Made by a program: the position numbers and the translations under genes | Notes under the pieces: model-generated | Databases searched by the model: none | What the model was told of the DNA's origin: nothing | Seen by the model: the letters and a program-made list of their open reading frames with translations, nothing else | Virus record (IMG/VR): IMGVR_UViG_3300044712_000991 | Span: 130,279 to 194,278 of that record | Direction: 5' to 3' (one strand) | From: a virus | DNA: 64,000 nt | In this document: positions 16,905 to 31,167 of the stretch, piece by piece | How positions within the stretch are numbered: the first letter of the stretch is position 1 | How the letters are laid out: the number at the start of each line of letters is the position of its first letter

Positions 16905-17411
16905 TCAGTCCAAGCCCTTCCGTTGCTCGGCCAACCGTGCTTTGCGCCTCTGCCGAACATGCTGGACGAACTGCTCGGCTATCGCCCGACCCACAAACAA
17001 CGCCTCTTCCTCCGAGAAGTGCCCAACATCCATAGACACCCCATCGAAATTGAGGAAGTTGGCCGGTCGCGGGAGATCGATGTGGACTGCTCGTTTGGTC
17101 GTGACCGTCACGGACTTCCTCACGAAGTCCCCCGAAGTGTTCTCCACGACAGGTGGAGGGGCAGTCATCTTCTTCCGCTTGGGCACCGCGTACGCCACAG
17201 TCCGTCCACGATTCCACTCCTGGATAGCCGTATCCGATGAGCGGTAGAAGGTGGTGCGCCGTTGACACTTGGTGCACTGGACCCAATGCTTGGGCACCCC
17301 CATCCTGTACTTCATACGGACTTCAATCACGCCCCCGTTAAAGGGTTTGAAGGGACTCCTGCACGTGGGACAGGGCTCAATAGTGGTGGGGGTAGATTTT
17401 GCCATGGTCAC
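16905..17411 (-). CDS. Lar-like (restriction alleviation) zinc-ribbon protein with C-terminal extension
   Basis: CPTC...WVQCTKC...DTAIQEWNR. Confidence 0.55.
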   Translation of the reverse strand: MTMAKSTPTTIEPCPTCRSPFKPFNGGVIEVRMKYRMGVPKHWVQCTKCQRRTTFYRSSDTAIQEWNRGRTVAYAVPKRKKMTAPPPVVENTSGDFVRKSVTVTTKRAVHIDLPRPANFLNFDGVSMDVGHFSEEEALFVGRAIAEQFVQHVRQRRKARLAEQRKGLD

Positions 17412-17647
17412 TCTTCTTTCATCTTAGGTGGATTCAAATCGAAGCACACGAGATCACTTGTCATGTCCGCCGCAAGACCGACCTTCCGTTGACACCTTGG
17501 GCAGTCTATCCGGAGATACCCCCGCTTGGACTTCTGAAGGCGCTCATCAAACGCCGTGGCCTCAAACTTAGTCTTGCAATGAGGGCACTCGACCCCCGTG
17601 TCGGAGAAGCAGAGGATTGCCCCAGGAATGTGGACACAGTGACTCAA
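17408..17647 (-). CDS. Double zinc-ribbon protein
   Basis: CPHC...CPRC. Confidence 0.6.
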   Translation of the reverse strand: MSHCVHIPGAILCFSDTGVECPHCKTKFEATAFDERLQKSKRGYLRIDCPRCQRKVGLAADMTSDLVCFDLNPPKMKEE

Positions 17648-17901
17648 TGGGGCTCCCCCACCTCATCTGGAAACGGCGCATCCTGAACCTCTCTCATGGC
17701 GGTCACTAAGTCCATCATGAGGCGAGTCTCTGTGTCGTTTGTACTCCCCTGCCGGAACTCAAGCACCATGTGCATCAAGCGATCTCTCTGGGCTTTACAC
17801 GCGCTGGACCACGCATCTTGTTGGATGTGCCGAATGACCGTGGTCTTCCCGATGAGTCGAGTCTGCACTAAAAGCTGGAGCCACTCCGAACAGTAGCGCA
17901 T
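17644..17901 (-). CDS. Hypothetical protein
   Basis: Operon packing with ATGA overlap. Confidence 0.55.
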   Translation of the reverse strand: MRYCSEWLQLLVQTRLIGKTTVIRHIQQDAWSSACKAQRDRLMHMVLEFRQGSTNDTETRLMMDLVTAMREVQDAPFPDEVGEPH

Positions 17902-17903
17902 AG

Positions 17904-18125
17904 TTACCTTCCTCCCATGTACATTCTTGCTCGTATGCGCACCTTCGTGTTGAACAGTCGGATCGCCCTGTCCTCCCCGAACAACTCTACGGATAGCCCG
18001 CAGGTTTCGCAGAAGACCACGGTGTCCCCCGTGCGTTTATCTTGACGGATGTTCGGTAGATTCCCACAGCAAGTTTCACACCGTGCTGTGGGGATAATTG
18101 ATTTCTTCTTCTTGGGTTTCTTCAT
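17904..18125 (-). CDS. Lar-like zinc-ribbon protein
   Basis: CETC...VFCETCG...DRAIRLFN. Confidence 0.5.
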   Translation of the reverse strand: MKKPKKKKSIIPTARCETCCGNLPNIRQDKRTGDTVVFCETCGLSVELFGEDRAIRLFNTKVRIRARMYMGGR

Positions 18126-18355
18126 GGGTGCCTGTCAAACGGATATCTGAATCGAATGAGCCACCCTCCGAGGAGAACGAAGTTCACGAGTCCTGCCTTC
18201 TCACTGAAGGACATCTGCGTCCAGAGCGACCCGCGCACATCCCGGGCATACACCCCGAACCCGAAGACCCTCACCCACAGTCGGTCCCCCTCGGGGGACT
18301 TACGGCCGGTGCGACTACATTGAAATCCTGGAATACGAAATCTCCTAGCGATCAT
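18122..18355 (-). CDS. Hypothetical protein
   Basis: Internal ATG at 18355 overlaps the upstream gene end. Confidence 0.5.
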   Translation of the reverse strand: MIARRFRIPGFQCSRTGRKSPEGDRLWVRVFGFGVYARDVRGSLWTQMSFSEKAGLVNFVLLGGWLIRFRYPFDRHP

Positions 18356-18590
18356 GCACGGGGTCTTTCTTCGGAATACCCCTGTAGGGAGGAAGCGTTT
18401 CTGGTGCATCCACCGCATAGTGCACGGCGATAGACAGTCCACGGAGAACCCTCAGGGCATCCTTCACCCGCATCCAGACTTCCACATAGGGTAGGCAGGG
18501 CTTGCTAAGATACCACCGCCCTCGGATCATGTCCATGGTCTTGTCAGGACGCGTGTGTATCTGCACGAGGTTGTCGATGAGGATGCTCAT
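18345..18590 (-). CDS. Hypothetical protein
   Basis: ATGA overlap at 18587-18590. Confidence 0.55.
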   Translation of the reverse strand: MSILIDNLVQIHTRPDKTMDMIRGRWYLSKPCLPYVEVWMRVKDALRVLRGLSIAVHYAVDAPETLPPYRGIPKKDPVHDR

Positions 18591-19405
18591 GGGCGTTCTC
18601 CAGGCAGACAAAGGTGGATGCGCACGGCAGTCGTTCTGCACGTGTTCTCACTTCCAGGAACGTCGGAGAACCATACGAGGTACCACGCTCCCCCGGGATT
18701 GGGCTGACTCTTCCACATCTTCCCCGCGTAGACCCCCGTGGGAGTCGAACCAGTGTAGTCCATGAGTTGCCCGAAGGTCTCCATGGTCATCCGCGCACAA
18801 TCGCCATCGAAGCGGATACTCTCCACGGAAGGCTGCGTCCACCCCTTGCTCAACGGGTGCACCATGGGCGGGATGCTATACAGTGGCGGTACCTCCCTCT
18901 CCACGGGCTTCTCCTTGGGGGCATTCGATGCAGGTGGCAGGGGAGCAAGTTTGTTCCGCTCGGCCACCGAGAGGTCAATCAGGCGGCGTGCGATATCCAA
19001 CAGCCGATCATCAATCGTCTCGGACTCTCGTAGGGGTACCTCTGCCCCGTACGTCCTGCACTTGAGAACATCCGCCGCGAGGTGTGTGAGTGCGCTGGAC
19101 AGGTCTGTCGGGGAGTGCGATGGTACAATCTCCGGACCACATGTGTAGCCCGTAAGTACTGTAGGCTCACTCTCGGGCTCGTCCTTCGGGGGATAATCCA
19201 CGAATGACACACTATTGAAGCGTAGTCCCGGGTACTCCTGGAGCTCGATCTTAGTGTGCCATGTGTGAACATCCGTTGCCTGAACCGTGTACATCCCACC
19301 CACCACAAGAACGCCACGGGGGTCATCATTGTTTCCGAACTTCACCTGCTCGTCTGTTGCCCCCACGTACTTCACTTGTGCACCCTTTTGAGCTTGAATA
19401 TTCAT
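18587..19405 (-). CDS. Multi-domain phage hypothetical protein
   Basis: GGAG SD; 272 aa ORF. Confidence 0.7.
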   Translation of the reverse strand: MNIQAQKGAQVKYVGATDEQVKFGNNDDPRGVLVVGGMYTVQATDVHTWHTKIELQEYPGLRFNSVSFVDYPPKDEPESEPTVLTGYTCGPEIVPSHSPTDLSSALTHLAADVLKCRTYGAEVPLRESETIDDRLLDIARRLIDLSVAERNKLAPLPPASNAPKEKPVEREVPPLYSIPPMVHPLSKGWTQPSVESIRFDGDCARMTMETFGQLMDYTGSTPTGVYAGKMWKSQPNPGGAWYLVWFSDVPGSENTCRTTAVRIHLCLPGERP

Positions 19406-19418
19406 ATCGTTTCTCCTA

Positions 19419-19853
19419 TTAGTCTGCTGTCCACTGCCAAACGAGATATGTAAGTACTGCCTCAGCGACCAAGATCACAACGAACACCGGCCATCTATCC
19501 CAGTTCCAACCTCCACCGTTACGGTGATACACCTTGTCCACCTCGATGTGAATGGCGATGGGCAGGGGGACATACCTAGTCTGATAGTAGTCGAAATTAT
19601 GAAACTTCCTGTACGTCTCCCAATCATCACGCCTTACGATGTTACCGTACGCTCCCGCGATATCGGGGAACATCCCGAGCACCGCACCCACGTAGCCCAC
19701 GGTACGGGCAGTCTGATTGTCGGCTCCCAGCAACTTCGCGGTTCCCGCGTACAACGTGAAACCGGCCAGTCCGTGACCAACGGTGCTATCCGCCGAGGCC
19801 TGTGCAACCCCACCCATGAGAAGGCACGCCAACACCACAGAGCGCCCTATCAC
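19419..19853 (-). CDS. Membrane protein resembling metal-dependent hydrolases (YdjM-like)
   Basis: GTG overlapping the upstream TGA; GHGLAG...LGMFPDI...FH...IHIEVDKVYH with TM segments. Confidence 0.45.
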   Translation of the reverse strand: MIGRSVVLACLLMGGVAQASADSTVGHGLAGFTLYAGTAKLLGADNQTARTVGYVGAVLGMFPDIAGAYGNIVRRDDWETYRKFHNFDYYQTRYVPLPIAIHIEVDKVYHRNGGGWNWDRWPVFVVILVAEAVLTYLVWQWTAD

Positions 19854-20116
19854 GCTATCACCTTCTGCTCGCGTAAGTCCCGGTTGAGTTCCTCGCAGAC
19901 TGCCCTCGCCCTCCCTAGTGCCTCCTCGGGATTGCGCAGGTAGCCCTTGATACGCCGAACGACCTTCCCCCGCTTCAAGCCCTTCTTGCTCGCTCGCGGT
20001 ATCCACTGAAAGATGCCCAAACTGAAACTCACGGCGTGCGCGTACGCCCCCGGTTGTCCGGGAGCGCATGCGCCATCGAAGTCGTACTCATAGGGTTGTG
20101 GATTAGCCTTGGGCAT
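19850..20116 (-). CDS. Hypothetical basic protein
   Basis: GGAG SD. Confidence 0.6.
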   Translation of the reverse strand: MPKANPQPYEYDFDGACAPGQPGAYAHAVSFSLGIFQWIPRASKKGLKRGKVVRRIKGYLRNPEEALGRARAVCEELNRDLREQKVIA

Positions 20117-20669
20117 CGAGAGTCTCCTGTTCAGTAGTTGGGGGTAGTCTATAGCCGACCTTACGGGCACGGTTGATGAGCATCATCTTCAGGTGTGGGG
20201 AGAGGATGCTCACCTTGTACGTCAGGAAGACCCTTTTGGCGTACCGCAGAAGACCCTCGGCGGAGATCATACCGCACCACTGTTTGCGGAGCGCCTCGTA
20301 CTTCTCCTCCCAATGCCCTGCGTTCTGAGCGTACCTCAGGGCTTCCCTCTCCCACCCCCTGGCACGGGTGTCCGCCGCATCCCGTTCGTTCTGCGCTTGA
20401 TCCACAGAGCGCCCGTATTCCTCGGCCTCCACAGTAGCCGCCTGTGCTGTGGCGGTAGCCACCCTGAGTTTTTCTAGGGTCTCCACATGGGTCTTCCACA
20501 ACTCCTGATACGCCTCATCCGTGATGTACAGCGTGGTGTCCTCGAAGGTCAACGCCCCTTCATACGCGGTGTACACCCACCCATCGTGCTTCATGCGCCG
20601 CAGAACATACAGTCGTCTGGGCATCGGGACATCCGTGGGGATGGGGCGTGTGTTACCTGCTAAGTCCAT
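20103..20669 (-). CDS. Coiled-coil hypothetical protein
   Basis: AAGGAG SD after promoter 20692-20720. Confidence 0.65.
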   Translation of the reverse strand: MDLAGNTRPIPTDVPMPRRLYVLRRMKHDGWVYTAYEGALTFEDTTLYITDEAYQELWKTHVETLEKLRVATATAQAATVEAEEYGRSVDQAQNERDAADTRARGWEREALRYAQNAGHWEEKYEALRKQWCGMISAEGLLRYAKRVFLTYKVSILSPHLKMMLINRARKVGYRLPPTTEQETLDAQG

Positions 20670-20691
20670 TGGCTCTCCTTTTACGTGCTCC

Positions 20692-20720
20692 AATATACAA
20701 CATTGGAAACAGAATGTCAA
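20692..20720 (-). promoter_or_regulatory. sigma70 promoter TTGACA-N17-TATATT
   Basis: -35 at 20715-20720, -10 at 20692-20697. Confidence 0.8.
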
Positions 20721-20920
20721 GTGGGGTGCTCAGATTTTTCCCATGCGTAACCACAGGGAATGAGGTCTCCTCGGGGGTTCCACGGGTTCTCCACCAGACC
20801 ATCACAGCGATAGACCACATGGGAGGATTTCCATGTGACGCACGGTGGGTGAACTTCACGCACTAGGCGCGATCCGCACTCGGGACACACCGATGGACAG
20901 TCTTTTGGTCTTCTACCCAT
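20717..20920 (-). CDS. Zinc-ribbon small protein
   Basis: CPECG...YRC...PCG; GGAGG SD. Confidence 0.55.
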   Translation of the reverse strand: MGRRPKDCPSVCPECGSRLVREVHPPCVTWKSSHVVYRCDGLVENPWNPRGDLIPCGYAWEKSEHPT

Positions 20921-20932
20921 GATGACCTCCTC

Positions 20933-21142
20933 CTACCCTATTTTGTCCTCAAGCAGAACGTACTGCTCCCGCGTGATCTCGCTCCAGAAGAGGAGGCGCA
21001 CAGCCTGCCCCACCACGGGGTGCGCGAGTTCGTCGGCCAGCCACGAAGTGGGGTGTTCATCGATCACAGCCTGTCGGGTGTCATGCCCGTACCTCGAAAT
21101 GTACTCGTAGAGCATGAAGAAGTACTGCTTGTCCTTGCTCAT
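20933..21142 (-). CDS. Hypothetical protein
   Basis: ATGA overlap. Confidence 0.55.
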   Translation of the reverse strand: MSKDKQYFFMLYEYISRYGHDTRQAVIDEHPTSWLADELAHPVVGQAVRLLFWSEITREQYVLLEDKIG

Positions 21143-21360
21143 CGCTGGCTCTCCACATGCGCACTGGGATGGCGCTCCTCGAAGAGGGGGCAGTTCACGC
21201 ACTCGTACCACATGGTGTTCGTGAGACTCGGAGTGCCGCCTACGCCTACGGTGTGGAAGAAGTCCCCCTGGCTGTCAACAAAGGAGTACTTGCACGCCTC
21301 CCGCCTTGCCGCACCACGCACTTTCAGATCGGCGGCGTGGATCATCCAGTTCTTAGCCAT
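21139..21360 (-). CDS. Cys-containing hypothetical protein
   Basis: Operon packing. Confidence 0.55.
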   Translation of the reverse strand: MAKNWMIHAADLKVRGAARREACKYSFVDSQGDFFHTVGVGGTPSLTNTMWYECVNCPLFEERHPSAHVESQR

Positions 21361-21670
21361 GATTGGTCTTTCCTAACGGTGGAAGAAACACACGCTCGTT
21401 CTTGCGCTCCTTCCAGTATGTTGAGAGGCAGAACCCGAGGTCTGACAGGTCATCCCGTGTAAAGATGGATGCCCCGTACATGACAAGACCCCCGATAAAC
21501 ACGATGACCGCCGCCACCCAGGATGCGGGGTTCCACCAGTTCCATGTCCACGACACGAGGTCGCCATCGTGCCAGTAGCGGACAATCATGAGGATGCGCA
21601 TCAGGTGACCTGCGTGGGTCAGATTATACGGATGACTCTTTTTTGTTCTCGTGCTGAGTTTCATTCTCAT
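21353..21670 (-). CDS. Small membrane protein
   Basis: WNWWNPASW followed by a TM segment. Confidence 0.55.
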   Translation of the reverse strand: MRMKLSTRTKKSHPYNLTHAGHLMRILMIVRYWHDGDLVSWTWNWWNPASWVAAVIVFIGGLVMYGASIFTRDDLSDLGFCLSTYWKERKNERVFLPPLGKTNHG

Positions 21671-22080
21671 GTGGTCTCCTGCGAAGGCGGTCGGTCTTGT
21701 TCGGTCGGTCTGTGTGCAACACCCACGACCACCCGTGCCTGTTGCCGAGCAGTAAAATGGGCTTCAGATTTGCTCAGTACTCTCTGCAACTCCTGCTCTT
21801 CCAAAGCATCGGCATCGAAGCCCTTGGACTGACAGTATACGAGCAGCGTGATACACACCCCTCCCACCTCCTGCGGTGGATCACCAGCGGGTCTGCCATA
21901 GACATAGTCCACAATCTTGTGTGCCATATCACGAGTCAGTCCTTCAGCCTGGGCGAGTTCTGTGGCTTCCTCTAGCACTCGGGTGACCCTCTCCACCACA
22001 TTGCCGACAGTCTCTGCGCCAAAACAGCGTACGGCCCAGTCTGTGGCTTGAATCTGGCGTGACCTGCGTACGGAACTCAT
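21667..22080 (-). CDS. MazG-like all-alpha NTP pyrophosphohydrolase
   Basis: ERVTRVLEEATELAQA...DPPQEVGGVCITL (EExxE...E pattern). Confidence 0.6.
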   Translation of the reverse strand: MSSVRRSRQIQATDWAVRCFGAETVGNVVERVTRVLEEATELAQAEGLTRDMAHKIVDYVYGRPAGDPPQEVGGVCITLLVYCQSKGFDADALEEQELQRVLSKSEAHFTARQQARVVVGVAHRPTEQDRPPSQETT

Positions 22081-22334
22081 GCGCCCTGCCCGTTCTTTTG
22101 GGGGTCATCCTTGTCAGGTACGCGCAGGGTCGTGTGGACACGCACGGTGGACTCGATTCGCATTTTTCCACCATCTTCGCCGTGTCTCCCCCACTCCCAA
22201 CTCATATGGATGTCGGGACCGAACTGAAAGTTGTGTCCTGGTGAGTACTGGACGGTCATCCGTGTAAGTTCGTACTTCAGGGCGATCGCCGCGAGTTCTC
22301 GGCAAATCTGTATCTGCTGTTCTGGGATAGTCAT
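22077..22334 (-). CDS. Hypothetical protein
   Basis: ATGA overlaps. Confidence 0.6.
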   Translation of the reverse strand: MTIPEQQIQICRELAAIALKYELTRMTVQYSPGHNFQFGPDIHMSWEWGRHGEDGGKMRIESTVRVHTTLRVPDKDDPQKNGQGA

Positions 22335-22651
22335 TTCCTTTTCTTCCTTTCCTTCTCTTGGGGCTTGGCGTGGAGCGGTGGATAGCCCAAATCCTCGCGC
22401 CGAGCATCGTTGAGCATCTTCAAGTATTCGATGGTCTCCCTATCCGAATTCGATAACTCGGGTAAGTCCTTGCTTGTCAGTGTGATTCTCCGTGGCACAT
22501 CTGTCGCTGGAATATCGCTCTCAGAGTACGGAAAGTACATCAACGTTTTTTCATCTACCCAAAACCCATCCTCCGAGGAACGCTCTGGTCTATTCTGCGT
22601 AAGGTGTACGGCTCCGTTGGGTTGTTTCACCACCCAAAGCTCAAGTCTCAT
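22331..22651 (-). CDS. Hypothetical protein
   Basis: ATGA overlaps. Confidence 0.6.
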   Translation of the reverse strand: MRLELWVVKQPNGAVHLTQNRPERSSEDGFWVDEKTLMYFPYSESDIPATDVPRRITLTSKDLPELSNSDRETIEYLKMLNDARREDLGYPPLHAKPQEKERKKRK

Positions 22652-22968
22652 GCCAGGGCTTTCTTGATGGTGTCCAACACGGCCGCTATACGGGCATTAT
22701 GCGCATCCGCCCCGCAGTTGCACTCGGTGTCCTCGGGGTTCGCGCAGGCATCGGGATGCTTGGGACACGAATACCCCAAATCCTCACGGTAATGAGGTAG
22801 CACACTCTGTTCCAACACCTTGACCGCCTCGGTCAAGAGCGACAGCGGAACGTACTCCACCGCATCATCCTGACCCTCCAGTCGCTGGTCTGCCCACTCC
22901 CCGAAGTGTCCGTGGGGTGTAGTGGACTGCGTGTCCACCCATATTCTTGTCGGCGTGAGTCCCATCAT
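22648..22968 (-). CDS. Hypothetical protein with C-terminal Cys cluster
   Basis: CPKH...CANPEDTECNCG. Confidence 0.6.
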   Translation of the reverse strand: MMGLTPTRIWVDTQSTTPHGHFGEWADQRLEGQDDAVEYVPLSLLTEAVKVLEQSVLPHYREDLGYSCPKHPDACANPEDTECNCGADAHNARIAAVLDTIKKALA

Positions 22969-23291
22969 CTCTTTCCTTTACGCTCGGGCTTGCTCACCGT
23001 ACGTACGCGTACGTGTGGGCGTGCAGACATGGGTGTCGCCCGAGGGTCTTGTCGTTGGAGAATGAACTGCACGGTCACGCTACTCATGCGCACCCCTACC
23101 ACCTGTAACTTGGAGTCCCGCATGGTCTGTCCCTCGTACTGCTTGAGCAACTGCTTGGCGAACCGCCGGAGTGCCCCCTGCATGCCCAACCCCCGCACGG
23201 TGTTGTCCTGGAGTTCGGCGGTCATGCCCATGGTTGCGCCAAATGATACATGATCGGCCTTCTTGCCCTTCATATACACATCGTAACTCAT
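22965..23291 (-). CDS. Hypothetical protein
   Basis: GGAGG SD. Confidence 0.6.
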   Translation of the reverse strand: MSYDVYMKGKKADHVSFGATMGMTAELQDNTVRGLGMQGALRRFAKQLLKQYEGQTMRDSKLQVVGVRMSSVTVQFILQRQDPRATPMSARPHVRVRTVSKPERKGKR

Positions 23292-23292
23292 G

Positions 23293-23478
23293 CTACACCT
23301 CCTCCCGGATACGGTCAGCGATGTCCTTCAGGCGATTGAACTGCGCGGGTGAGCACTCGGAGGGCACGGCGTACCCGTTGAGGGTCTGCATGAACTCCCG
23401 CTCCCAGTCCGTCAGGCGCGTGGGATGCGCATTGATGAGTTCCATGTTCTCCTGTACTATCTTCTCTCGAAAGTTCAT
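23293..23478 (-). CDS. Small hypothetical protein (LTDWEREF motif)
   Basis: AAGGA SD after promoter 23507-23535. Confidence 0.6.
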   Translation of the reverse strand: MNFREKIVQENMELINAHPTRLTDWEREFMQTLNGYAVPSECSPAQFNRLKDIADRIREEV

Positions 23479-23506
23479 GCGCGAATGTCCTTCTGTGGTT
23501 GTGCCC

Positions 23507-23535
23507 AATATACAACATGGAGATCGAAAAGTCAA
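23507..23535 (-). promoter_or_regulatory. sigma70 promoter TTGACT-N17-TATATT
   Basis: -35 at 23530-23535, -10 at 23507-23512. Confidence 0.8.
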
Positions 23536-23816
23536 GTCCTGTCCTTCTTTGGTTTCTCGGTTGCCATTCGACAAGTCATACGTTTCCCCACCGTGCCCTC
23601 CCAGAGCATACACCAAGCGGTTCTGTGCAAATCGCGTACTCCCGGAGCGGGACGAGGTCGATACTGCCGACACTCTCCGCACGGTATCTCCCCCTTCTTA
23701 GCCCTGTGGTACTCTCGTACGCTCATTGTTTCCTCCACCTGCGGAGGAGTCTGCGACACCACGGCCAATGGCGATGGATGGCAAGTCCGCCCATCCACAC
23801 CACAAGAAGTACGCAC
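23532..23816 (-). CDS. Cys-rich hypothetical protein (start uncertain)
   Basis: CGEC...C...C. Confidence 0.45.
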   Translation of the reverse strand: MRTSCGVDGRTCHPSPLAVVSQTPPQVEETMSVREYHRAKKGEIPCGECRQYRPRPAPGVRDLHRTAWCMLWEGTVGKRMTCRMATEKPKKDRT

Positions 23817-23867
23817 GCCCCGTACAGCAGTATGGGGGGCGTGAGTGCATGTACGGGTCCTATCGTG

Positions 23868-24143
23868 TCACCCATTAGTTCCTCCTTCACCACCCTGATC
23901 CTCGGGGGCTTTCAGTTTTGGTATTCCCTGGAACTCGTTGCAGATACCGCTAGCATCCACAGGAAGGTCTGTGGTGGTCGGGGGGCGTCCTGGGTACACC
24001 CATGTGAACTGCACCCTCTGGCAGATGTACTGCCCATCCTCATCACCATACCCGTGCAGGCAGTTCGCACACGCATCCTGATCGCGGTAGCCCTTCGCAG
24101 CCAAAGTGGCCTCCGCCTGTTTACGCGCCTCTTCGTAGTTCAT
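23868..24143 (-). CDS. 4-Cys small protein, tandem paralog 2
   Basis: MNYEEARKQAEA...CANC...YICQRVQFTW...PVDASGICNEF. Confidence 0.7.
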   Translation of the reverse strand: MNYEEARKQAEATLAAKGYRDQDACANCLHGYGDEDGQYICQRVQFTWVYPGRPPTTTDLPVDASGICNEFQGIPKLKAPEDQGGEGGTNG

Positions 24144-24409
24144 GGTGTGCCTCCCGTTGTAGGTGGTAATTCCACGGTGACCTGCCTCTCGAACTTGTTG
24201 CATACGCCGTTCGGGTCTACGGGCATGGTGGTCACTTTTGAGCGTGCTCCAACAACCCATGTCCACTCGAATGTCACACGCTGACACTCGTATGATCCTT
24301 CCCTATCATCCCACACATGGGCGCACACCGCACATGTGTTGACTTCATGGTACCCATCGGCTGCCACGAGCAAGGCTTTCGCCTTCTGCTTCTCTTCTTC
24401 ATAATCCAT
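24140..24409 (-). CDS. 4-Cys small protein, tandem paralog 1
   Basis: MDYEEEKQKAKA...CAVC...YECQRVTFEW...PVDPNGVCNKF. Confidence 0.7.
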   Translation of the reverse strand: MDYEEEKQKAKALLVAADGYHEVNTCAVCAHVWDDREGSYECQRVTFEWTWVVGARSKVTTMPVDPNGVCNKFERQVTVELPPTTGGTP

Positions 24410-25817
24410 TGCGCACCTCCTCCTCCTTGTCGAGTACTTCGCGCATCGTGTGCAGGAAGACCATCGCACACGCGGGAACTATGGCGTTCCCGATGGCTTT
24501 GACTTGGGCTTGCCTTTCAGGTATTCCCTTACCCACGCGGATAAGAAGTTCCCTGTCGGCCACGTCCATCCCAACGGGTAGCCCATCAGCCAGCACTCCC
24601 ATACGGGGTTCAACTGCCCACCAATCGGCGGTCGTGTAGCCCCCGCCTCCTGTGGCGCACTCCCCACCGCATCCCTCAACTTGACACCCCACCGCGTGCC
24701 TTCCCGATTCTCCCTGTACCATCCATGACCATCGTTGGTCGCCCTCACCGCTCCACCTTCGGCATCCGATGCCCTCGGGGTCGGCCACGGAGTCTGATCG
24801 ACCGTCGTGAGCGCTACGGTGTCCGCGAGGTTCAGGCTGTGCGAGTTCTGACCGTTCTTGGTCAGCCTCCTCCCCGTGGGGCTCAGCACCGCATCGGGGT
24901 GCTCCACTTCCTGCGCCGTTGGGGTCGGCCACTGCACCTGCTCCGCCAAGCACCCCGGCACCCAGTGCCTCCCGATGGACTCCCTGTAGGCCTTCCTGCG
25001 CTCGTACCTCCCCGGTCCCCCCGCAATCTCCACCACAGTCGGTGTCAGCCACAGCCTCTCGATCACCAGGGCCATCGTGGTCAGCGACAACCGTGTGGGT
25101 CGCACCACAGGCACAGGAGTGTCCGTGAGGATCAGTTCCTCGGGGGATGGCGTACGCCCCACTCTGAATCTCTCCGAGCGCACCGCCTCCGTCGCCCTCG
25201 GTGTCCCCACCCAGACGTTCACTATCGGTCCCCTGCGAGACCAACGCTTCCCACCAGTCGTCGGGGAGTCCCCGGGTGCCCGTGGGGTTGCACACGATCC
25301 AGATGCGGTCTCGTTTGTGGGGAGCTCCAAGCTGCCACGCGCCGAAACGATGCCATTCCGCATCGTACCCGATTTCGGCCAAGTCAGTGAGGACTCGCTT
25401 GAAGAACTGCCCTTTTTCGGACGTGAGGAGCCCAGGGACATTTTCAAACAGCGCCCAACGGGGTCGTACGTTGCTAAGGGCTCGGACGCACTCACTCCAG
25501 AGATCACGCGTGTCTTCCGAGGCTTTGCGCTTGCCCGCGAGCGAGTGGGGCTGGCAGGGGAAGCCCCCTGTGATGAGGTTGATTCCGTCGAACCGTTCTT
25601 CGGTCCAGTCGATTTTCGTGATGTCGCCAAGGCAGATGCTCCCAGGAAAGTTTCGGTGATAGATAGAACACGAGAACTCTTCGATGTCCGCGTGAGCCAC
25701 GTTACAGTAGCGCTCTCCCCACACAGCACGGGCGGCCACAGAGAAGCCTCCAATGCCCGAGAAGAGGTCGAGGTGTTTGATCCGGTCATCCACAATCGGC
25801 AGAGGTGTGAGCATCAT
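24399..25817 (-). CDS. C5 DNA cytosine methyltransferase, alpha chain (motifs I-VIII and X)
   Basis: DLFSGIGG, GGFPCQ, FENVPG, HKRDRIWIV, VKAIGNAIVP. Confidence 0.9.
   Translation of the reverse strand: MMLTPLPIVDDRIKHLDLFSGIGGFSVAARAVWGERYCNVAHADIEEFSCSIYHRNFPGSICLGDITKIDWTEERFDGINLITGGFPCQPHSLAGKRKASEDTRDLWSECVRALSNVRPRWALFENVPGLLTSEKGQFFKRVLTDLAEIGYDAEWHRFGAWQLGAPHKRDRIWIVCNPTGTRGLPDDWWEALVSQGTDSERLGGDTEGDGGGALGEIQSGAYAIPRGTDPHGHSCACGATHTVVADHDGPGDREAVADTDCGGDCGGTGEVRAQEGLQGVHREALGAGVLGGAGAVADPNGAGSGAPRCGAEPHGEEADQERSELAQPEPRGHRSAHDGRSDSVADPEGIGCRRWSGEGDQRWSWMVQGESGRHAVGCQVEGCGGECATGGGGYTTADWWAVEPRMGVLADGLPVGMDVADRELLIRVGKGIPERQAQVKAIGNAIVPACAMVFLHTMREVLDKEEEVRNGL
24479..25795 (-). CDS. 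Nested alternative-frame ORF: putative MTase beta chain (TRD + motif IX); start uncertain (25363 possible)
   Basis: 438 codons open inside the MTase; WLTPT/WPTPT/WPTPR repeats and GQLNPVWECWLMGYPLGWT. Confidence 0.7.
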   Translation of the reverse strand: MWMTGSNTSTSSRALEASLWPPVLCGESATVTWLTRTSKSSRVLSITETFLGASALATSRKSTGPKNGSTESTSSQGASPASPTRSRASAKPRKTRVISGVSASEPLATYDPVGRCLKMSLGSSRPKKGSSSSESSLTWPKSGTMRNGIVSARGSLELPTNETASGSCATPRAPGDSPTTGGKRWSRRGPIVNVWVGTPRATEAVRSERFRVGRTPSPEELILTDTPVPVVRPTRLSLTTMALVIERLWLTPTVVEIAGGPGRYERRKAYRESIGRHWVPGCLAEQVQWPTPTAQEVEHPDAVLSPTGRRLTKNGQNSHSLNLADTVALTTVDQTPWPTPRASDAEGGAVRATNDGHGWYRENREGTRWGVKLRDAVGSAPQEAGATRPPIGGQLNPVWECWLMGYPLGWTWPTGNFLSAWVREYLKGKPKSKPSGTP

Positions 25818-26023
25818 CCTTTAAGTGCTCCATTGGGCATAGATGCTCTGTTCGAGAATGTAACAAACCACCCGAAGTCGAACCACCTGGGTCTCTTCCA
25901 CACGCCCACCACGCGAAGCAGGAGCCCCGATGTACAGTCGTGTCTGACTGCTATCGCATCGACCTCCACCACATCACCCTTCTTGAGTCGGGGTGAATAC
26001 GTGTCCTTGAGTGTCATTTTCAT
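25814..26023 (-). CDS. Hypothetical protein
   Basis: ATGA overlaps. Confidence 0.55.
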   Translation of the reverse strand: MKMTLKDTYSPRLKKGDVVEVDAIAVRHDCTSGLLLRVVGVWKRPRWFDFGWFVTFSNRASMPNGALKG

Positions 26024-26244
26024 TGTATGTCCCTCGCCTTTCTCTGCTGGGTTGTACGCTTTCTGTACTCTGCAATCCACACCACGGCGGTGACCACCAT
26101 GTAGAACCCCGGGACGATGAACGTCATGATGGTCGCCACTTCTTTCCAGTCGATGACCACCCAGTACAGGCATAGAAATATGAGGAAGATGGAGGTGGCT
26201 ATGGCGAACCCGCCCATTGCCCCCGCCTCGTGTTCGTTTCTCAT
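26020..26244 (-). CDS. 2-TM membrane protein
   Basis: Two hydrophobic segments. Confidence 0.6.
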   Translation of the reverse strand: MRNEHEAGAMGGFAIATSIFLIFLCLYWVVIDWKEVATIMTFIVPGFYMVVTAVVWIAEYRKRTTQQRKARDIQ

Positions 26245-26615
26245 GCGGGGTCTTCTCCCTTTTTGTCTTCTCGTTTGATGTTCAGCAACAGCCGCTCATA
26301 CGGGTCATCCTGCACAGGCGCAGGTACGGGCTCGGTGGGCGTAGATAGCCCCTCCGCCCTCTTAATGGCATCCAGCATAGCGCGGGTCAGTTTGCTAGGC
26401 AGTGGCTCACGAACGGCTAGTTTCAGTAAGGCAAGCATTGCTGGTGCTTCCGCCATCAGCCTCAGGTCGGCTTCCCGCTGCTCCTCATCTCCGTAGCCCG
26501 TGTAGTCCTCCTCACCAACGGCGAGGTCGTACGACATACCGGGGGCTCGCTGACCACGGATGAACATCACGCCGTTGCGCTTACAGAATGTCCAGGGTGT
26601 GGGTGAGTGTTTCAT
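26241..26615 (-). CDS. Phage hypothetical protein (MKHxPxPW / ADxxLMAxAP family)
   Basis: MKHSPTPW...ADLRLMAEAPAMLALLK; AAGGAG SD. Confidence 0.65.
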   Translation of the reverse strand: MKHSPTPWTFCKRNGVMFIRGQRAPGMSYDLAVGEEDYTGYGDEEQREADLRLMAEAPAMLALLKLAVREPLPSKLTRAMLDAIKRAEGLSTPTEPVPAPVQDDPYERLLLNIKREDKKGEDPA

Positions 26616-26638
26616 GCTGTGTTCTCCTTGTGGTGCAC

Positions 26639-26667
26639 AATATACACTATTGAGACTTCAAAGTCAA
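26639..26667 (-). promoter_or_regulatory. sigma70 promoter TTGACT-N17-TATATT
   Basis: -35 at 26662-26667, -10 at 26639-26644. Confidence 0.8.
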
Positions 26668-26671
26668 GTCC

Positions 26672-26932
26672 TCACTTGACTTTTCTCTTCTTGGGTTCCC
26701 CGAGAATGAAGGTCAGTCCGATAGTGTTGAGACTGATACCCACAATGGGCGTATCCACCCCCAGATACTTATACGTCTTGAGAAGTTCCTTGACCAACCT
26801 CTGCAAGGCCGGTCGCAGAGCACAGTTCTTCACCATGGCATCTGTGATGTTGATGTGTGCCCCGCCTATGGTCATTGATCTTGACCGCTCATCCATCGGG
26901 GATTTCTTCGCTCGATAAAAATCAACGCTCAT
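26672..26932 (-). CDS. Hypothetical protein
   Basis: GGAGG SD. Confidence 0.6.
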   Translation of the reverse strand: MSVDFYRAKKSPMDERSRSMTIGGAHINITDAMVKNCALRPALQRLVKELLKTYKYLGVDTPIVGISLNTIGLTFILGEPKKRKVK

Positions 26933-26961
26933 ATACCCTCCTCGGTTAGTTGTTCAAGTTG

Positions 26962-27036
26962 TGGATGCTGAGGGAGTCGAACCCCCGACCCCCGCCTTGT
27001 AAGGGCGGTGCTCTTAACCTACTGAGCTAAGCATCC
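26962..27036 (-). tRNA. tRNA-Val(TAC), CCA not encoded
   Basis: GGATGCT/AGCATCC acceptor, CCGCC-CTTACAA-GGCGG anticodon arm, TTCGA T-loop. Confidence 0.92.
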
Positions 27037-27039
27037 AAT

Positions 27040-27225
27040 AGAAGTACAGTATGTGGCTTCGCCGTTGTGTCGCCAACGGAGCTGGATACGATATCGGAGT
27101 CGTTGCTCAATCGCTCTCCGGTGAGTTTTCCACCACACGGTCAGCGTACGACGGATGCTACTTGTGCTGCGCTGAGAGTCGTACACCTACCTCACACGGT
27201 CCGTCCTTGCGGCTACTGTACCTCT
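27040..27225 (-). ncRNA. Candidate 186-nt structured RNA filling the tRNA-CAT / tRNA-Val spacer
   Basis: 12-bp closing stem AGAGGUACAGUA/UACUGUACUUCU; internal stems GUACGAC/GUCGUAC, CCGUUG/CAACGG, GGUG/CACC, GGAG/CUCC. Confidence 0.6.
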
Positions 27226-27227
27226 TG

Positions 27228-27301
27228 TGGACCCGCCCCGACTCGAACGGGGGACTACCTGATTATGAGTCAGGTGCTCTAACCAACTGAGCTACGGGTC
27301 C
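27228..27301 (-). tRNA. tRNA(CAT), probably Ile2 (lysidine type) rather than Met; CCA not encoded
   Basis: GGACCCG/CGGGTCC acceptor with C4-G69 and C5-G68; CCTGA-CTCATAA-TCAGG. Confidence 0.88.
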
Positions 27302-27312
27302 AGTACCGACTG

Positions 27313-27495
27313 CTACTTAGCGAAGTGCTCTCCCAGGGTCTTGCACGCCCACGCGAGCACGAGACACGCGAGGACACCCAAAACTCCAAAGGAGAGCCCC
27401 CAATCCTCCCGCCGAATGGTCACCACGAGCGCCCAGATGAGACCGATAAAGAAGACCAAGAGGATGCCACCTGCGAGAATGATCTGCCAATCCAT
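27313..27495 (-). CDS. Small 2-TM membrane protein (MDWQ paralog)
   Basis: MDWQIILAGG...; AAGGAG SD. Confidence 0.65.
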   Translation of the reverse strand: MDWQIILAGGILLVFFIGLIWALVVTIRREDWGLSFGVLGVLACLVLAWACKTLGEHFAK

Positions 27496-27532
27496 TACGT
27501 ACGCTCCTTTTCTTGTGTACTACATACTGCAC

Positions 27533-27727
27533 TCAGTGATACAGCCTATCGATGACCACGTGCACCGCCCACATACATACGACAATCACCGCGAACGCAC
27601 CGCAGAAGACAGCAAACGTCTTATCGTACGATCGCAGGGACTTCACAAGCGCCTCCACAAAGACCCACACCGAAGGCACGAGTACGACTGTAAGAATTGT
27701 CACGGCTACCCAAAACTGCCAATCCAT
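27533..27727 (-). CDS. Small 2-TM membrane protein (MDWQ paralog)
   Basis: MDWQFWVAV...; GGAGG SD. Confidence 0.65.
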   Translation of the reverse strand: MDWQFWVAVTILTVVLVPSVWVFVEALVKSLRSYDKTFAVFCGAFAVIVVCMWAVHVVIDRLYH

Positions 27728-27750
27728 AGCGACCTCCCTCTGAATGTTTG

Positions 27751-27832
27751 TGTCGAGAACAGGACTTGAACCTGCATGGGTCTCCCCAGTGGCTCCTAAG
27801 GCCACCGCGTCTGCCAATTCCGCCATCCCGAC
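27751..27832 (-). tRNA. tRNA-Leu(TAG), CCA not encoded
   Basis: GTCGGGA/TCTCGAC acceptor, GGCGGAATTGGCAGACGC D-arm, GTGGC-CTTAGGA-GCCAC, long variable arm. Confidence 0.9.
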
Positions 27833-27873
27833 ATTGTATCTAGGCTGTTAAGTTCCTTGTGTGCTGTAATGAC

Positions 27874-28170
27874 TCACCAGGCGAAACGTGGGTATTTAGA
27901 ATTCATGTGTCTCACTTGCTCACAAGCGATCATCGCATCGTATTCTTGTTTAGGGATAGTCTTCCAGTTCATAATAGTCACACTACGCGAGGGATTCGTC
28001 GTCTCCCGCCACCACTGGAGCGGATGTACATTCACCACAAAATTCGCATACGCAGGCACGCCATCCGCCCCCGAGATGAACGCTGTCACTAGGTAGTAGG
28101 TAGTCTGCGTGACTTCCCGCTGTTCAACAGACTTGGAGATCGGGCGCTTACGTGGCGATACTTTTTTCAT
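27874..28170 (-). CDS. Hypothetical protein
   Basis: AAGGTG SD. Confidence 0.55.
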   Translation of the reverse strand: MKKVSPRKRPISKSVEQREVTQTTYYLVTAFISGADGVPAYANFVVNVHPLQWWRETTNPSRSVTIMNWKTIPKQEYDAMIACEQVRHMNSKYPRFAW

Positions 28171-28174
28171 TGTT

Positions 28175-28357
28175 TCACCTTGTGATGAAATTGGATGTTT
28201 GGATATTGATTAGCGCCCTCCGGCGCTCAACCTTCAGGTACTCCCCGAGCGCGAGCCTCGCGGGTCGGCAACTGTTAATGTGCGCTTGAAAGTTCGCCTC
28301 GGGGCGCACCACCCGCTTCTGACAGTGGGGGCACTTCGCTACCTGGATGGTGGTCAT
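28175..28357 (-). CDS. Small zinc-finger protein
   Basis: CPHC...AHINSC. Confidence 0.55.
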   Translation of the reverse strand: MTTIQVAKCPHCQKRVVRPEANFQAHINSCRPARLALGEYLKVERRRALINIQTSNFITR

Positions 28358-28620
28358 GCGTGCACAATCTCCCCATCGTTAGGAACCGACCCTGTCTGAC
28401 GGTAGAAGTCATACTGCGCTTTCGTTATCTCCTGACAGAACAGTATTGGTGTACTCATGTGACCCGTTGCCCAATCCATGGGATCACTGCTGGTTACAGT
28501 AAACCCCACACTCCACCGGCCATCGCGGGGGCTACGTCCCACAGTAATGTAGTAGTACTTCTCGGCATCCCCTCCCGCCGAGGAGGGTACAGTACGGTTG
28601 GACACTCTCAAGGGGCTCAT
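28354..28620 (-). CDS. Hypothetical protein
   Basis: ATGA overlaps. Confidence 0.55.
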   Translation of the reverse strand: MSPLRVSNRTVPSSAGGDAEKYYYITVGRSPRDGRWSVGFTVTSSDPMDWATGHMSTPILFCQEITKAQYDFYRQTGSVPNDGEIVHA

Positions 28621-29276
28621 GTGGTCTCCTTTTTGAACGCTGTGTTACCGATCTTCAGCAGGGTCACCCGTGGTGCCCACTGCTCGGCCATCGCCCTCGC
28701 GATGCCAGGGAAGGTCTTCGACCTCGCCTTCGCACGTTCTGCGGGCGGGAGTTTCCAGAGGTCGGCGTACCACTTGTCCATCGACTTCCCCGAACCGAAG
28801 ACCACACGCTCCCCTGGCTCGACCACATTTGTGGGCTCCAACAACGGAAGTCCACGGAGCCACAGGCAGGTCTTCTTCGAGTACGGATCACCGAACATGT
28901 ACGGCTGAATCACTTGGTCGGGCTTCCGCCACACCCGGGACATGATGCCCACGGGGTTCTCGATAGCCACTCGGGGGCACTTCGATGGGAGGATGGTCGC
29001 AAAGCGCATAAAGAAGTCCACGCCCTGCTGTTGCCGGCCATCCTTGCGCTTCTGTTCGAACCACGCAGCGCCCGAGACCGCGAGGTGCGTACACGGGGGA
29101 AAGGCGATGATCATATCCCACTGCTGATCGAGCAGGGGGAGGACATCCTGCTCCAAGTGCCACTCGGGGTGCGCCCCCGAGCAGGGGAGAATATCACAGG
29201 AGTACGCTTCATGCCCGAGCGCACGGAGTTCTGTCGTCACCGCCTGAGACTCTTCACACGCAACTAACACCCTCAT
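28617..29276 (-). CDS. Minimal phage C5 DNA methyltransferase (MRVLVACE family)
   Basis: MRVLVACEESQ, AFPPCTHL, VAIENPVG, RSKTFPGIARAMAEQW. Confidence 0.8.
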   Translation of the reverse strand: MRVLVACEESQAVTTELRALGHEAYSCDILPCSGAHPEWHLEQDVLPLLDQQWDMIIAFPPCTHLAVSGAAWFEQKRKDGRQQQGVDFFMRFATILPSKCPRVAIENPVGIMSRVWRKPDQVIQPYMFGDPYSKKTCLWLRGLPLLEPTNVVEPGERVVFGSGKSMDKWYADLWKLPPAERAKARSKTFPGIARAMAEQWAPRVTLLKIGNTAFKKETT

Positions 29277-29299
29277 CTGTCCTCCTAAAAGTTACCCCT

Positions 29300-29328
29300 A
29301 ATATACACACTCCGTTCGTGATTGTCAA
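29300..29328 (-). promoter_or_regulatory. sigma70 promoter TTGACA-N17-TATATT
   Basis: -35 at 29323-29328, -10 at 29300-29305. Confidence 0.8.
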
Positions 29329-29348
29329 CACCCCTTGAAAATAATGTT

Positions 29349-29951
29349 CTACCCCCATTGAGAAGCCATGGCCTTTGCGACACCCTCGAAGGTCTTGCTT
29401 GCTGTTTTCGCATCATGAGCCACGCCTCTACTCCCACCCCGCCCTCTAGCGAAGCCCCCCGTGTTGCTTGGTAAGTACGGTGTGAACTCCTTGACGACCT
29501 TCGTCGGAACAAGGGAGGGCAGTCCTTTGAGCCACAACAGCGTACGTTTTGAATACGGGTGACCAAATTGATACGGCTGTATGACCTGTGTTGGCTCAGG
29601 AAGCCCGATGATCTTCAATGGTGTTGGATTCTCTATGGCCACCCTGGGGCACCCACTACGGTAGAACATCATGAAAAACTCTTTTGCTTCCAACGCTTTT
29701 GCTAGACGCGCCTCATCCACATTCCCTGCCGTGGGGTACATGAACCTCGCGCCCGCCTTGCTCATATACGTGCACGGGGGGTGTGCGATTATCAAGTCCC
29801 ACCCATCATCTAGTACCTTCAGCACGTCGCCCTGTATGTGATTCCCTGGCGTCTCTGTCGGTAGCAGGTCGCAACTCCACGCATCGTGACCACGGGAGGC
29901 AAAGGCATCCCGGACAGCCCCGCTGAACTCACACGCGACGAGGACTCTCAC
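29349..29951 (-). CDS. Minimal phage C5 DNA methyltransferase (MRVLVACE family), paralog
   Basis: MRVLVACEFSG, AHPPCTYM, VAIENPTP, SKTFEGVAKAMASQW. Confidence 0.8.
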   Translation of the reverse strand: MRVLVACEFSGAVRDAFASRGHDAWSCDLLPTETPGNHIQGDVLKVLDDGWDLIIAHPPCTYMSKAGARFMYPTAGNVDEARLAKALEAKEFFMMFYRSGCPRVAIENPTPLKIIGLPEPTQVIQPYQFGHPYSKRTLLWLKGLPSLVPTKVVKEFTPYLPSNTGGFARGRGGSRGVAHDAKTASKTFEGVAKAMASQWG

Positions 29952-30073
29952 CCACCCTCCTCGGGATCAACGATGGGGCGGGTGTGGTACAGCCAGAGCG
30001 CCACGCCAGCACAGAAACTGACGATGCACCCCAAGGAGAACCCACATGCGAACTCAAACCATGGTCCTGGCAT
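29948..30073 (-). CDS. Tiny single-TM protein
   Basis: TAATG overlap; hydrophobic 41 aa. Confidence 0.45.
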   Translation of the reverse strand: MPGPWFEFACGFSLGCIVSFCAGVALWLYHTRPIVDPEEGG

Positions 30074-30729
30074 TAGTCTGCCCTTTCTGTTGGTGGTGTA
30101 CTTGTTTTGGGAAAAAGGTTCTCCATCGCGAGGCACACATCGAGCGCCAACGGATAGGGAATCTTCGCGGAGTCGAACTTGGACATCCCTTGGACTCCCG
30201 TGGTAGACCCACGAGGGGCGCGTACATGGCAGGGGTCTCCGTTGTTGCATGTCGGCTTGAGCACCAAACCCTCGGGGAACCTACCCCACAGGTCGGTGGG
30301 CTTCATCACGTGCTTCCCGTACTGACACTGCGTGACCGTCCGCCGTTCATACTCATCGAGCCACCCCATCTTCCGCAGTTTGGCTCTCGGGTTCTCGATG
30401 ATGAAGTACAGGTTGGGATTGGTCTCCTGGGCGCGTTTGATGATCCACTTCGTGCGCAGGACGAGTTCCTGCCCCAGGATGGCCGTGGCGCTCTTCGGTT
30501 GGTTGTCGTGTGTCCAGTTCTTGGAGATGCTGAGGATGCTGAAGGACTGACATGGGGGTGAGGCGAGAATGATGTCGAACACCCCCCAGTCGTGGGGGTC
30601 GAACGTACGGACATCCCTGTGCTCGGCTGGAAAGCGTTCATCGAGTTCCACGCGCACCACTTCGTGCCCACGGTCTCGAAACGGCTGTGACCACCCTTCT
30701 TTGCCTGAAAACAGATCAAGAACTCTCAC
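30073..30729 (-). CDS. C5 DNA cytosine methyltransferase
   Basis: GTG start with GGAGG; LDLFSG, ASPPCQSFS, IIENPRA, KPTDLW. Confidence 0.82.
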   Translation of the reverse strand: MRVLDLFSGKEGWSQPFRDRGHEVVRVELDERFPAEHRDVRTFDPHDWGVFDIILASPPCQSFSILSISKNWTHDNQPKSATAILGQELVLRTKWIIKRAQETNPNLYFIIENPRAKLRKMGWLDEYERRTVTQCQYGKHVMKPTDLWGRFPEGLVLKPTCNNGDPCHVRAPRGSTTGVQGMSKFDSAKIPYPLALDVCLAMENLFPKTSTPPTERAD

Positions 30730-30754
30730 CCGCCCTCCTTCGTTTTGGTGTACC

Positions 30755-30783
30755 AATATACACAAAGGAAGAGCGAAAGTCAA
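30755..30783 (-). promoter_or_regulatory. sigma70 promoter TTGACT-N17-TATATT
   Basis: -35 at 30778-30783, -10 at 30755-30760. Confidence 0.8.
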
Positions 30784-30786
30784 GTC

Positions 30787-31167
30787 CTAACTGCGGGCGC
30801 GAACGGCACTCAAATTAACTTTGGAAGGATAGGAGGATGGGAGGATATCCGTGGACAACCATGCGACATGCACGAGGTTCTTCACCGTGAACAGTCCCTG
30901 CTGACCATCAAGGAACTCCACAACGAACAGCGAGTCGCTCTTGCGGGGAACAATGTAGTTCTCAGCGTGCTTATACCGCCACCAGTGGTGCATGGCGGTT
31001 CCTGGAGCGTAGAGGTGCTTTACCTGCCCAATGCTGCGCAGGTAGTGCATATTCTGAGATACACGCCCCACACTCGTGGATACCACGAGCACATGCGATC
31101 CCTCAAGGATGGGGAGGTTCGGAATGGAGCCATAGGTCAACCCCTTATGTTTGAATACAATGCTCAT
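30787..31167 (-). CDS. Hypothetical protein
   Basis: First gene after promoter 31173-31201. Confidence 0.6.
   Translation of the reverse strand: MSIVFKHKGLTYGSIPNLPILEGSHVLVVSTSVGRVSQNMHYLRSIGQVKHLYAPGTAMHHWWRYKHAENYIVPRKSDSLFVVEFLDGQQGLFTVKNLVHVAWLSTDILPSSYPSKVNLSAVRARS

Follow-up and report, generated by a model that had tools for sequence, protein, structure and literature searches.

A predicted stalk-closed non-coding element upstream of tRNA-Val in the mixed tRNA and small-gene cluster of an uncultured 194-kb phage

Stable RNAs from the tRNA clusters of phages T4 and T5 have been known for decades, and their roles are still unexplained. The T5 record NC_005859 holds eight stable or tRNA-like RNAs (RNAIII, RNAI, RNA1, RNA2H, RNAIV, RNA2, RNA3 and RNAX), described as 'stable RNA with unknown functions', in a cluster that mixes tRNAs with tiny ORFs, e.g. 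T5.066 ('two transmembrane domains'). The ends of RNAIII (106 nt, 0 nt from tRNA-His) pair over 12 bp. RNA2H, 172 nt long and 19 nt upstream of tRNA-Ala, has a 10-bp closing stem, and RNAIV (103 nt) an interrupted terminal helix with an outermost run of 8 bp. The predicted interiors of these RNAs are branched, with z-scores of −2.4 to −3.2 for the whole molecules and −0.6 to −1.4 for the interiors. In T4, RNAC and RNAD lie 1–6 nt from tRNA-Arg and from each other. These small transcripts of the tRNA region, also called species 1 and 2 RNAs, still have unknown roles (PMC3014915; PMC9697503).

Other RNAs are also found next to tRNAs or in comparable settings. Theta ribozymes, which are minimal HDV-like ribozymes, occur beside tRNAs of phages, in many cases tRNA-Met, whose genes encode no CCA (PMC10879173). 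The E. coli 3'ETS-leuZ sponge is a 53-nt, Hfq-dependent sRNA that acts by base pairing (PMC8166272). Y RNA and YrlA genes are found within ~4 kb of a Ro60 gene, on the same strand, and the YrlA motif GNCGAAN0-1G lies in the Ro-binding stem, toward the 5' end (PMC4201824).

The DNA analyzed here (the window, 64,000 nt) makes up the final 64 kb of a 194,278-bp IMG/VR phage record (IMGVR_UViG_3300044712_000991, here G000; 55% G+C). All positions are those of the window unless another record is named. The minus strand carries tRNA-Leu(TAG) at 27750–27832, a tRNA with anticodon CAT at 27227/8–27301, and tRNA-Val(TAC) at 26961/2–27036. The Leu and Val tRNAs were called by both ARAGORN and Rfam. The tRNA(CAT) was called Met by ARAGORN and scored 71.3 bits with the Rfam tRNA model; it is possibly of the Ile2 type. 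No CCA is encoded, and its 3' end reads ...GGGUCCA, followed by CAAGAGG. Between tRNA(CAT) and tRNA-Val lies a non-coding spacer of 190 nt (27037–27226, minus), made up of the element under study and 1–3 flanking nt on each side. Read in the sense of the tRNAs, the spacer starts with AAGAGGUACAGUA and finishes with UACUGUACUUCUAUU.

The surroundings form a mixed gene/tRNA unit. A gene for a two-helix membrane protein of 60 aa (27313–27495, minus) stops 11 nt before tRNA(CAT), and it has a paralogue at 27533–27727 (minus; 40% over 35 aa, E 3e-5). Both proteins begin with MDWQ. Very small genes of this two-helix membrane type are scattered among the tRNAs, as they are in T5. DNA methyltransferase genes are plentiful around the three tRNAs. 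The nearest sigma-70-like promoter match upstream (TTGACA-17-TATATT, 29300–29328, minus) came from a consensus scan in which promoter-like matches were no more numerous than in shuffles. The same kind of scan found no terminator-like site between this match and the element and tRNAs. A transcript carrying the tRNAs and the element likely starts at 29300–29328; because promoter and terminator calls both come from a consensus scan, we infer, rather than observe, that the element is co-transcribed with the tRNAs.

A preliminary description of the spacer, made from its letters alone, reported a 12-bp terminal stem set 3 nt from each tRNA. The stem proved to be real. Its 5' strand, AGAGGUACAGUA (27214–27225, minus, read from 27225 down to 27214), pairs with its 3' strand, UACUGUACUUCU (27040–27051, minus, read from 27051 down to 27040), in 12 consecutive base pairs, one of them G-U, with a mean pair probability of 0.97. 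The offsets needed a small correction: the stem begins 2 nt past the discriminator A of tRNA(CAT) and stops 3 nt short of G1 of tRNA-Val. An equally long stem within 8 nt of both ends occurred at a frequency of 1.7e-4 in 200,000 shuffles. The inverted repeat can be extended to 18-nt arms that are 83% complementary, from the UCCA of tRNA(CAT) onward.

The spacer had a minimum free energy (MFE) of −67.1 kcal/mol in the tRNA sense (z −2.5), and the opposite strand a z of −1.1. The predicted MFE structure was identical to the centroid, a five-way junction. Its strongest internal hairpin (27139–27191, minus) has 13 pairs with a 10-bp core, a 25-nt loop and a mean pair probability of 0.97. Closer to the 3' end is a hairpin with a CCGUUG/CAACGG core (27056–27082, minus; core pair probability 0.98). 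Without the closing stem, the 162-nt interior gave a z of +0.29, that is, it folded like shuffled sequence. Nearly all of the folding signal is in the closing stem. The finer features of the preliminary description did not hold up. The twice-repeated GACCGUGUG is present twice, but 13 of 100 window shuffles matched as often, and the word is mildly enriched genome-wide. The UCAGCG/CGCUGA pairing, put forward as a pseudoknot or switch, is a chance-level 6-nt pairing in competition with a 10-bp stem, and the GCAA-capped hairpin has just 2–3 pairs.

In its layout, the element resembles the T5 stable RNAs. Like them, it is on the tRNA strand, in a cluster of tRNAs and small ORFs, a few nt from a tRNA; its ends pair (12 bp, compared with ~8–12 bp in T5) around a branched interior, and a z of −2.5 for the whole goes together with an unremarkable interior. 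Unlike the T5 RNAs, which were observed as stable molecules, the element is only predicted, and its interior is slightly less stable (z +0.3). Because the interiors of the T5 stable RNAs are also unremarkable, a plain interior is no strong argument against a stable RNA. Like RNAC and RNAD of T4, the element adjoins a tRNA in a phage tRNA cluster; RNAC differs from it by ending in a tRNA-like T-arm and an acceptor-like pairing. Neither sequence comparison nor a covariance model built from the element and its MFE structure (R1) revealed similarity to the T5 stable RNAs or to T4 RNAC/RNAD at their annotated positions. The likeness would thus be one of kind, not of a homologous family. With an architecture that fits the T5 stable RNAs, the new class suggested in the preliminary description is unneeded.

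Relatives of the locus were scarce. Searching 50,697 phage records by blastn returned only generic tRNA matches. IMG/VR had 0 matches to an exact pattern anchored on both tRNAs, and none of the 80 IMG/VR loci around the 472-aa methyltransferase was related beyond that gene. Among JGI contigs, a 20-mer of the big loop had 0 matches, and a 20-mer of the tRNA-Val 5' end hit 4 tRNA arrays, all unrelated. The 1077-aa protein encoded 4 kb upstream of the element led to two distant relatives. One is a complete phage of 171.8 kb (G001), with 35 tRNAs and ~40% G+C in the tRNA region. The other is a syntenic contig of 21.7 kb (L097), in which the gene beside the 1077-aa homologue is followed directly by homologues of window 15.8–16.4 kb; the whole island, with methyltransferases, the three tRNAs and the element, is missing there. 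By nhmmer and covariance model, the element was absent from both G001 and L097, and it is therefore dispensable for the lineage. The 124-aa protein encoded downstream of tRNA-Val led to a Logan contig of 2,455 nt (L118; 95.8% identical over 1.19 kb), the sole relative found with the element and a near-identical one. Model R1, run against the window, the other tRNA cluster of the phage, G001, L097, T4 and T5, matched only the element itself and L118. The conservation of structure in relatives that the preliminary description had asked about thus extends to near-identical L118, where element and predicted fold are kept, but not to the more distant L097 and G001.

The comparison with L097 also outlines the larger region. 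Relative to L097:13222–14556, a 14-kb stretch (window ~16400–30800) is wholly missing in the syntenic contig. It contains several DNA methyltransferases, the three tRNAs, small membrane proteins and the element, and behaves as an accessory island.

These searches also bear on a role at the DNA level, as a miniature inverted-repeat mobile element or recombination site. Its ~160 bp between inverted repeats of 9–12 bp would suit such an element, as would the rearrangement junction at its edge (see below). It is single-copy in the genome, has no target-site duplication, and exact words found no copies in IMG/VR or JGI contigs; moreover, the junction is inside the repeat, not outside. We regard this reading as exceedingly improbable. 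By tblastx, no decayed gene or paralogue of the element was detected in the genome.

In L118, the order is the 3' part of tRNA(CAT), a gene for a 67-aa membrane protein, the element, tRNA-Val and an 86-aa gene. The 67-aa gene (L118:76–279) has its own AAGGAGG-N5-ATG, and its protein is unrelated to the MDWQ membrane paralogues of G000. The element is 97.8% identical and directly precedes tRNA-Val, as in G000, although its 5' neighbor differs. It follows that the element travels with tRNA-Val, and that the exact filling of a tRNA-tRNA spacer, as first described, is true of G000 and peculiar to it: in L118, the 67-aa ORF splits tRNA(CAT) from the element. Homology between G000 and L118 starts at GUACAGUA (window 27221), upstream of which G000 has GAG where L118 has 220 nt. 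The outer AGAG of the closing stem is not in the common block. Most simply, the AAGAGG of G000, with no start codon after it, would be a remnant of the ribosome-binding site of the 67-aa gene; the change could have gone in either direction. A deletion may have produced the outer 4 bp of the G000 stem as a side effect.

The phage was also found in the Logan run SRR26046407, as two contigs of 26.5 kb and 25.3 kb. Judging from gene offsets, one of them appears to begin at the same tRNA(CAT) base as L118, a contig of a different run. This common start suggests a graph branch, e.g. the coexistence of one arrangement that includes the 67-aa gene and one that lacks it.

Between G000 and L118, the element has four differences: A>U at 27083 (junction), C>U and an inserted base in the loop at 27069, and C>U at 27041 (stem). 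Three of the four are in the junction and the hairpin loop. The loop of the 27056–27082 hairpin is GCGACA in G000 and GCGAUAA in L118, with the stem intact despite the substitution and the 1-nt insertion, and the hairpin at 27139–27191 is identical. A protein-coding gene was ruled out by the same 1-nt insertion, which shifts every ORF spanning it. For L118, the same five-way junction was predicted, with a closing helix of 9 bp plus 5 bp made with the new 5' flank, in which the stop codon of the upstream gene takes part. Through C27041U, what is a G-C pair in G000 becomes A-U, formed with this different flank. The re-formed helix is weak support, because a 5-bp A/U-rich extension could arise by chance.

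Divergence was low across the element. It differs from L118 by 3 substitutions in 185 nt (1.6%; 2.2% counting the indel), and tRNA-Val diverges by 2.6% between the two. For the next two genes, pN was 0.023 and pS 0.084 and 0.165. Compared with synonymous divergence (one-sided Fisher tests), the element was less divergent than the nearer gene (p 0.02), the other gene (p 8e-6) and both pooled (p 2e-5). In the adjacent gene, the initial 170 nt are as conserved as the element (local comparison, p 0.54). Because of this equally conserved coding stretch, so little divergence may be due to a recombination block of recent origin instead of selection.

Fold and divergence together bear on whether the stem alone matters. 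It could be just a cis-acting processing or insulating stalk, with the 160-nt interior as a functionless passenger. Such a stalk would bring the 3' end of the upstream RNA beside the 5' end of tRNA-Val and serve as an RNase III-type stem, as a fold insulator or, in L118, as a cap protecting the 3' end of the small mRNA upstream. In agreement with this, the closing stem accounts for all of the excess folding energy, around an interior with a z of +0.29, and L118 re-forms the stem with a different 5' flank, upstream stop codon included. The 117-nt His-to-Ala spacer of G001 offers a parallel, with a 13-bp end-to-end stem around an unremarkable interior (z −0.9). Yet a plain hairpin would suffice for such a task, and a 160-nt passenger should drift, while the interior shows just 3 changes against 8–17% synonymous differences in the neighboring genes. 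For the RNase III version in particular, 12 bp is short for a classical site. We consider a stalk acting in cis somewhat unlikely to be the whole explanation.

The rearrangement in L118 brings in a further alternative, in which the spacer is a functionless relic: leftover intergenic DNA of a fast-changing island, with a stem that arose partly by chance when a deletion joined the AAGAGG remnant to the element. The 220 nt of L118 are indeed replaced by GAG in G000, with the junction inside the stem, and an AAGAGG that no start codon follows is set against the AAGGAGG-N5-ATG of L118. The absence of the island from L097, an interior that is not unusually stable and the equal conservation of the adjacent coding stretch point the same way. 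A relic is harder to reconcile with the inner 9 bp of the stem, which G000 and L118 have in common and which both re-extend, or with changes that avoid paired positions and a divergence under the synonymous level of both neighboring genes. Furthermore, the other tRNAs of G000 follow genes at 11–40 nt without comparable filler. On balance a relic seems unlikely. Both this alternative and that of a stalk acting in cis are serious rivals.

The preliminary description had also named specific kinds of RNA. Rfam 15 contained no family that matched the spacer at E ≤ 10, whether it was searched within 5 kb or as 203 nt alone, so the Infernal/Rfam search proposed there came back empty; HDV, hammerhead, twister, pistol and hatchet ribozymes were all without a match in the spacer at this threshold. 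A self-cleaving ribozyme, theta/HDV-like or of another small type, would trim the 3' end of tRNA(CAT), and the context fits that of theta ribozymes, as the element directly follows a phage tRNA without an encoded CCA. Such a ribozyme would call for a nested double pseudoknot (P1, P2, P3, P1.1 and P4) that cleaves within ~5 nt of the tRNA 3' end. We built a relaxed HDV-like descriptor based on the architecture in PMC10879173, as distinct from that paper's own file. Between −6 and +12 of the tRNA end, it located no cleavage site belonging to a nested P1/P2/P3/P4 fold, and no such fold with a P2 of at least 5 bp at any position, so the proposed HDV-like/theta search also gave no fitting fold near the tRNA 3' end. 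Unlike the minimal theta motifs, the element is 186 nt long, and in L118 it does not adjoin tRNA(CAT). A tRNA-associated ribozyme has thereby become a most improbable candidate.

A second proposed kind was a 6S-sized polymerase decoy, to which we added a Y-RNA-like partner of a Ro60-type protein as another protein-partnered decoy. The size of ~186 nt and the paired ends would fit, and GGCGAAG at 27057–27063 agrees with the YrlA motif GNCGAAN0-1G (PMC4201824). In the element, this word is near the 3' end, and by our estimate about 1 in 10 sequences of such length would contain it by chance. The predicted fold is a multibranched five-way junction with local hairpins and helices at probabilities of 0.7–0.98, not a 6S-like rod with a large central bubble, and Rfam returned no 6S-family match. 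No Ro60 (TROVE, PF05731) gene was detected in the whole phage at E ≤ 1, and no DUF2828 gene in the phage. The ACAGCAA handle is missing from the element, which has ACAGUAG inside the stem instead. Neither lowered ARAGORN thresholds nor Rfam revealed a T-arm or D-arm mimic. A decoy of either type is very unlikely.

Further RNA kinds were searched for with the same outcome. ARAGORN and Rfam gave no cloverleaf or tRNA-like domain in the element, i.e. no tRNA, pseudo-tRNA or tmRNA. At low thresholds, ARAGORN reported a 'tRNA-Ser' with an intron and a permuted 'tmRNA', both of them artefacts spanning the two real tRNAs. For an RNase P RNA core, we looked for CR-I (GAGGAAAGUCC) and CR-V (ACAGAAnnCGGCUUA) forming P4; RF00010 matched neither G000 as a whole (E ≤ 10) nor the spacer. 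Like 3'ETS-leuZ, an RNA from the element could be cut from a polycistronic tRNA precursor and act in trans. Unlike it, the element has no significant complementarity to the tRNAs of the phage or to the rest of its genome: pairing with the eight tRNAs gave z-scores from −1.3 to +1.2, and possible antisense targets in the phage genome were only chance-level 10–14-mers.

For the element itself, our leading reading is a tentative one, a little short of an even call: a predicted non-coding, stalk-closed small-RNA cassette of the tRNA-Val unit, within a mixed tRNA/small-gene operon on an accessory island. The element would be transcribed jointly with the flanking tRNAs and the small membrane-protein genes. 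An RNase P cut at G1 of tRNA-Val would create its 3' end, 3 nt past the stalk. In G000, 3' maturation of tRNA(CAT) would supply its 5' end; in L118, where the 67-aa gene precedes it, an endonuclease would cut at the stalk or close to it. The end-to-end helix (12 bp in G000, 9 + 5 bp in L118) would hide both termini from exonucleases, and the resulting RNA of 186–190 nt could persist like RNAIII, RNA2H and RNAIV of T5 and RNAC and RNAD of T4. Release as a discrete RNA by tRNA processing, as first proposed, thus stays the best reading and has experimental precedents in T5 and T4, but the specific candidates attached to it failed their tests. Counting against such a cassette are the interior z of +0.29, the possible recombination block, the outer 4 bp outside the common block, and the absence from L097 and G001. 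Evidence for an independent function of the element is thin.

A bolder version of the cassette reading appears quite unlikely to us. Here, the element would be cargo in a hyper-variable repertoire of stalk-closed RNAs in phage tRNA operons, acting in trans on a host factor, e.g. as a decoy for an enzyme with tRNA or RNA as its substrate, and would stand for an undescribed counter-host class. Possible further members of the repertoire are an element before tRNA-Tyr in G000 (element B) and the 117-nt His-to-Ala spacer of G001.

Element B is in the 363-nt gap between tRNA-Pro and tRNA-Tyr (L082:8399–8761, minus; genome 127398–127760), just upstream of the window. It is 171 nt long and stalk-closed by a 10 + 4-bp helix, with a z of −4.1 overall and −2.3 for the interior; the case for a structured RNA is stronger here than for the element in the 190-nt spacer. 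The same gap holds a sealed, circularly permuted tRNA-like module, in which a T-arm is followed by a loop-closed acceptor stem and then a D-arm. Element B begins with CACAAGAGG-N3-GUAGCC like the spacer element and is otherwise unalignable with it. The word CACAAGAGG-N3-4-GUAGCC was rejected as a family signature, as the remainder of the two elements does not align. It had 18 matches in IMG/VR, none adjoining tRNAs on those loci, and its third copy in the genome is a ribosome-binding site before an ATG. We read the word as probably a tRNA trailer joined to what is left of a Shine-Dalgarno site. A tmRNA gene of ~460 nt (L082:4357–4816, minus; RF00023, 83 bits, E 2e-31), missed by ARAGORN, is also present in the other tRNA cluster of G000.

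G001 has additional RNAs of note. Its array of 35 tRNAs includes a 246-nt RNase P RNA-like element (L096:4744–4989, minus; G001:C1:126743–126988), which aligns with the full length of RF00010; its 30.5 bits (E 5.5e-9 to 2.6e-6) fall short of the gathering score. A CR-I-like GAGAAACGUCCG and a CR-V-like AGCAGAAGUUGGCGUA are present, and the specificity domain is mostly missing. In a limited literature search, we came across no report of a phage that encodes an RNase P RNA. A tmRNA is likewise present in G001, and its tag is AEAKSSTAFVDEAGILVFADESELVPVMV. With a z of −5.4 to −6.1, the 220-nt Met-to-Trp spacer (L096:13137–13356, minus) shows very strong structure. The 13-bp end-to-end stem closes the 117-nt His-to-Ala spacer (L096:12572–12688, minus). 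Neither spacer had an Rfam match at E ≤ 1.

By analogy with T4 and T5, the element would belong to a known kind of RNA without homology to its members, an orphan of modest interest when taken alone. By itself it raises no fresh question, and its value is that of one more data point for the stalk-closed cassette design in phage tRNA operons. If expressed, it would be an unrelated addition to the T4/T5-type stable RNAs, from an uncultured phage of 194 kb. Such cassettes would then be gained, lost and placed in new contexts between near-identical phages while staying attached to a tRNA.
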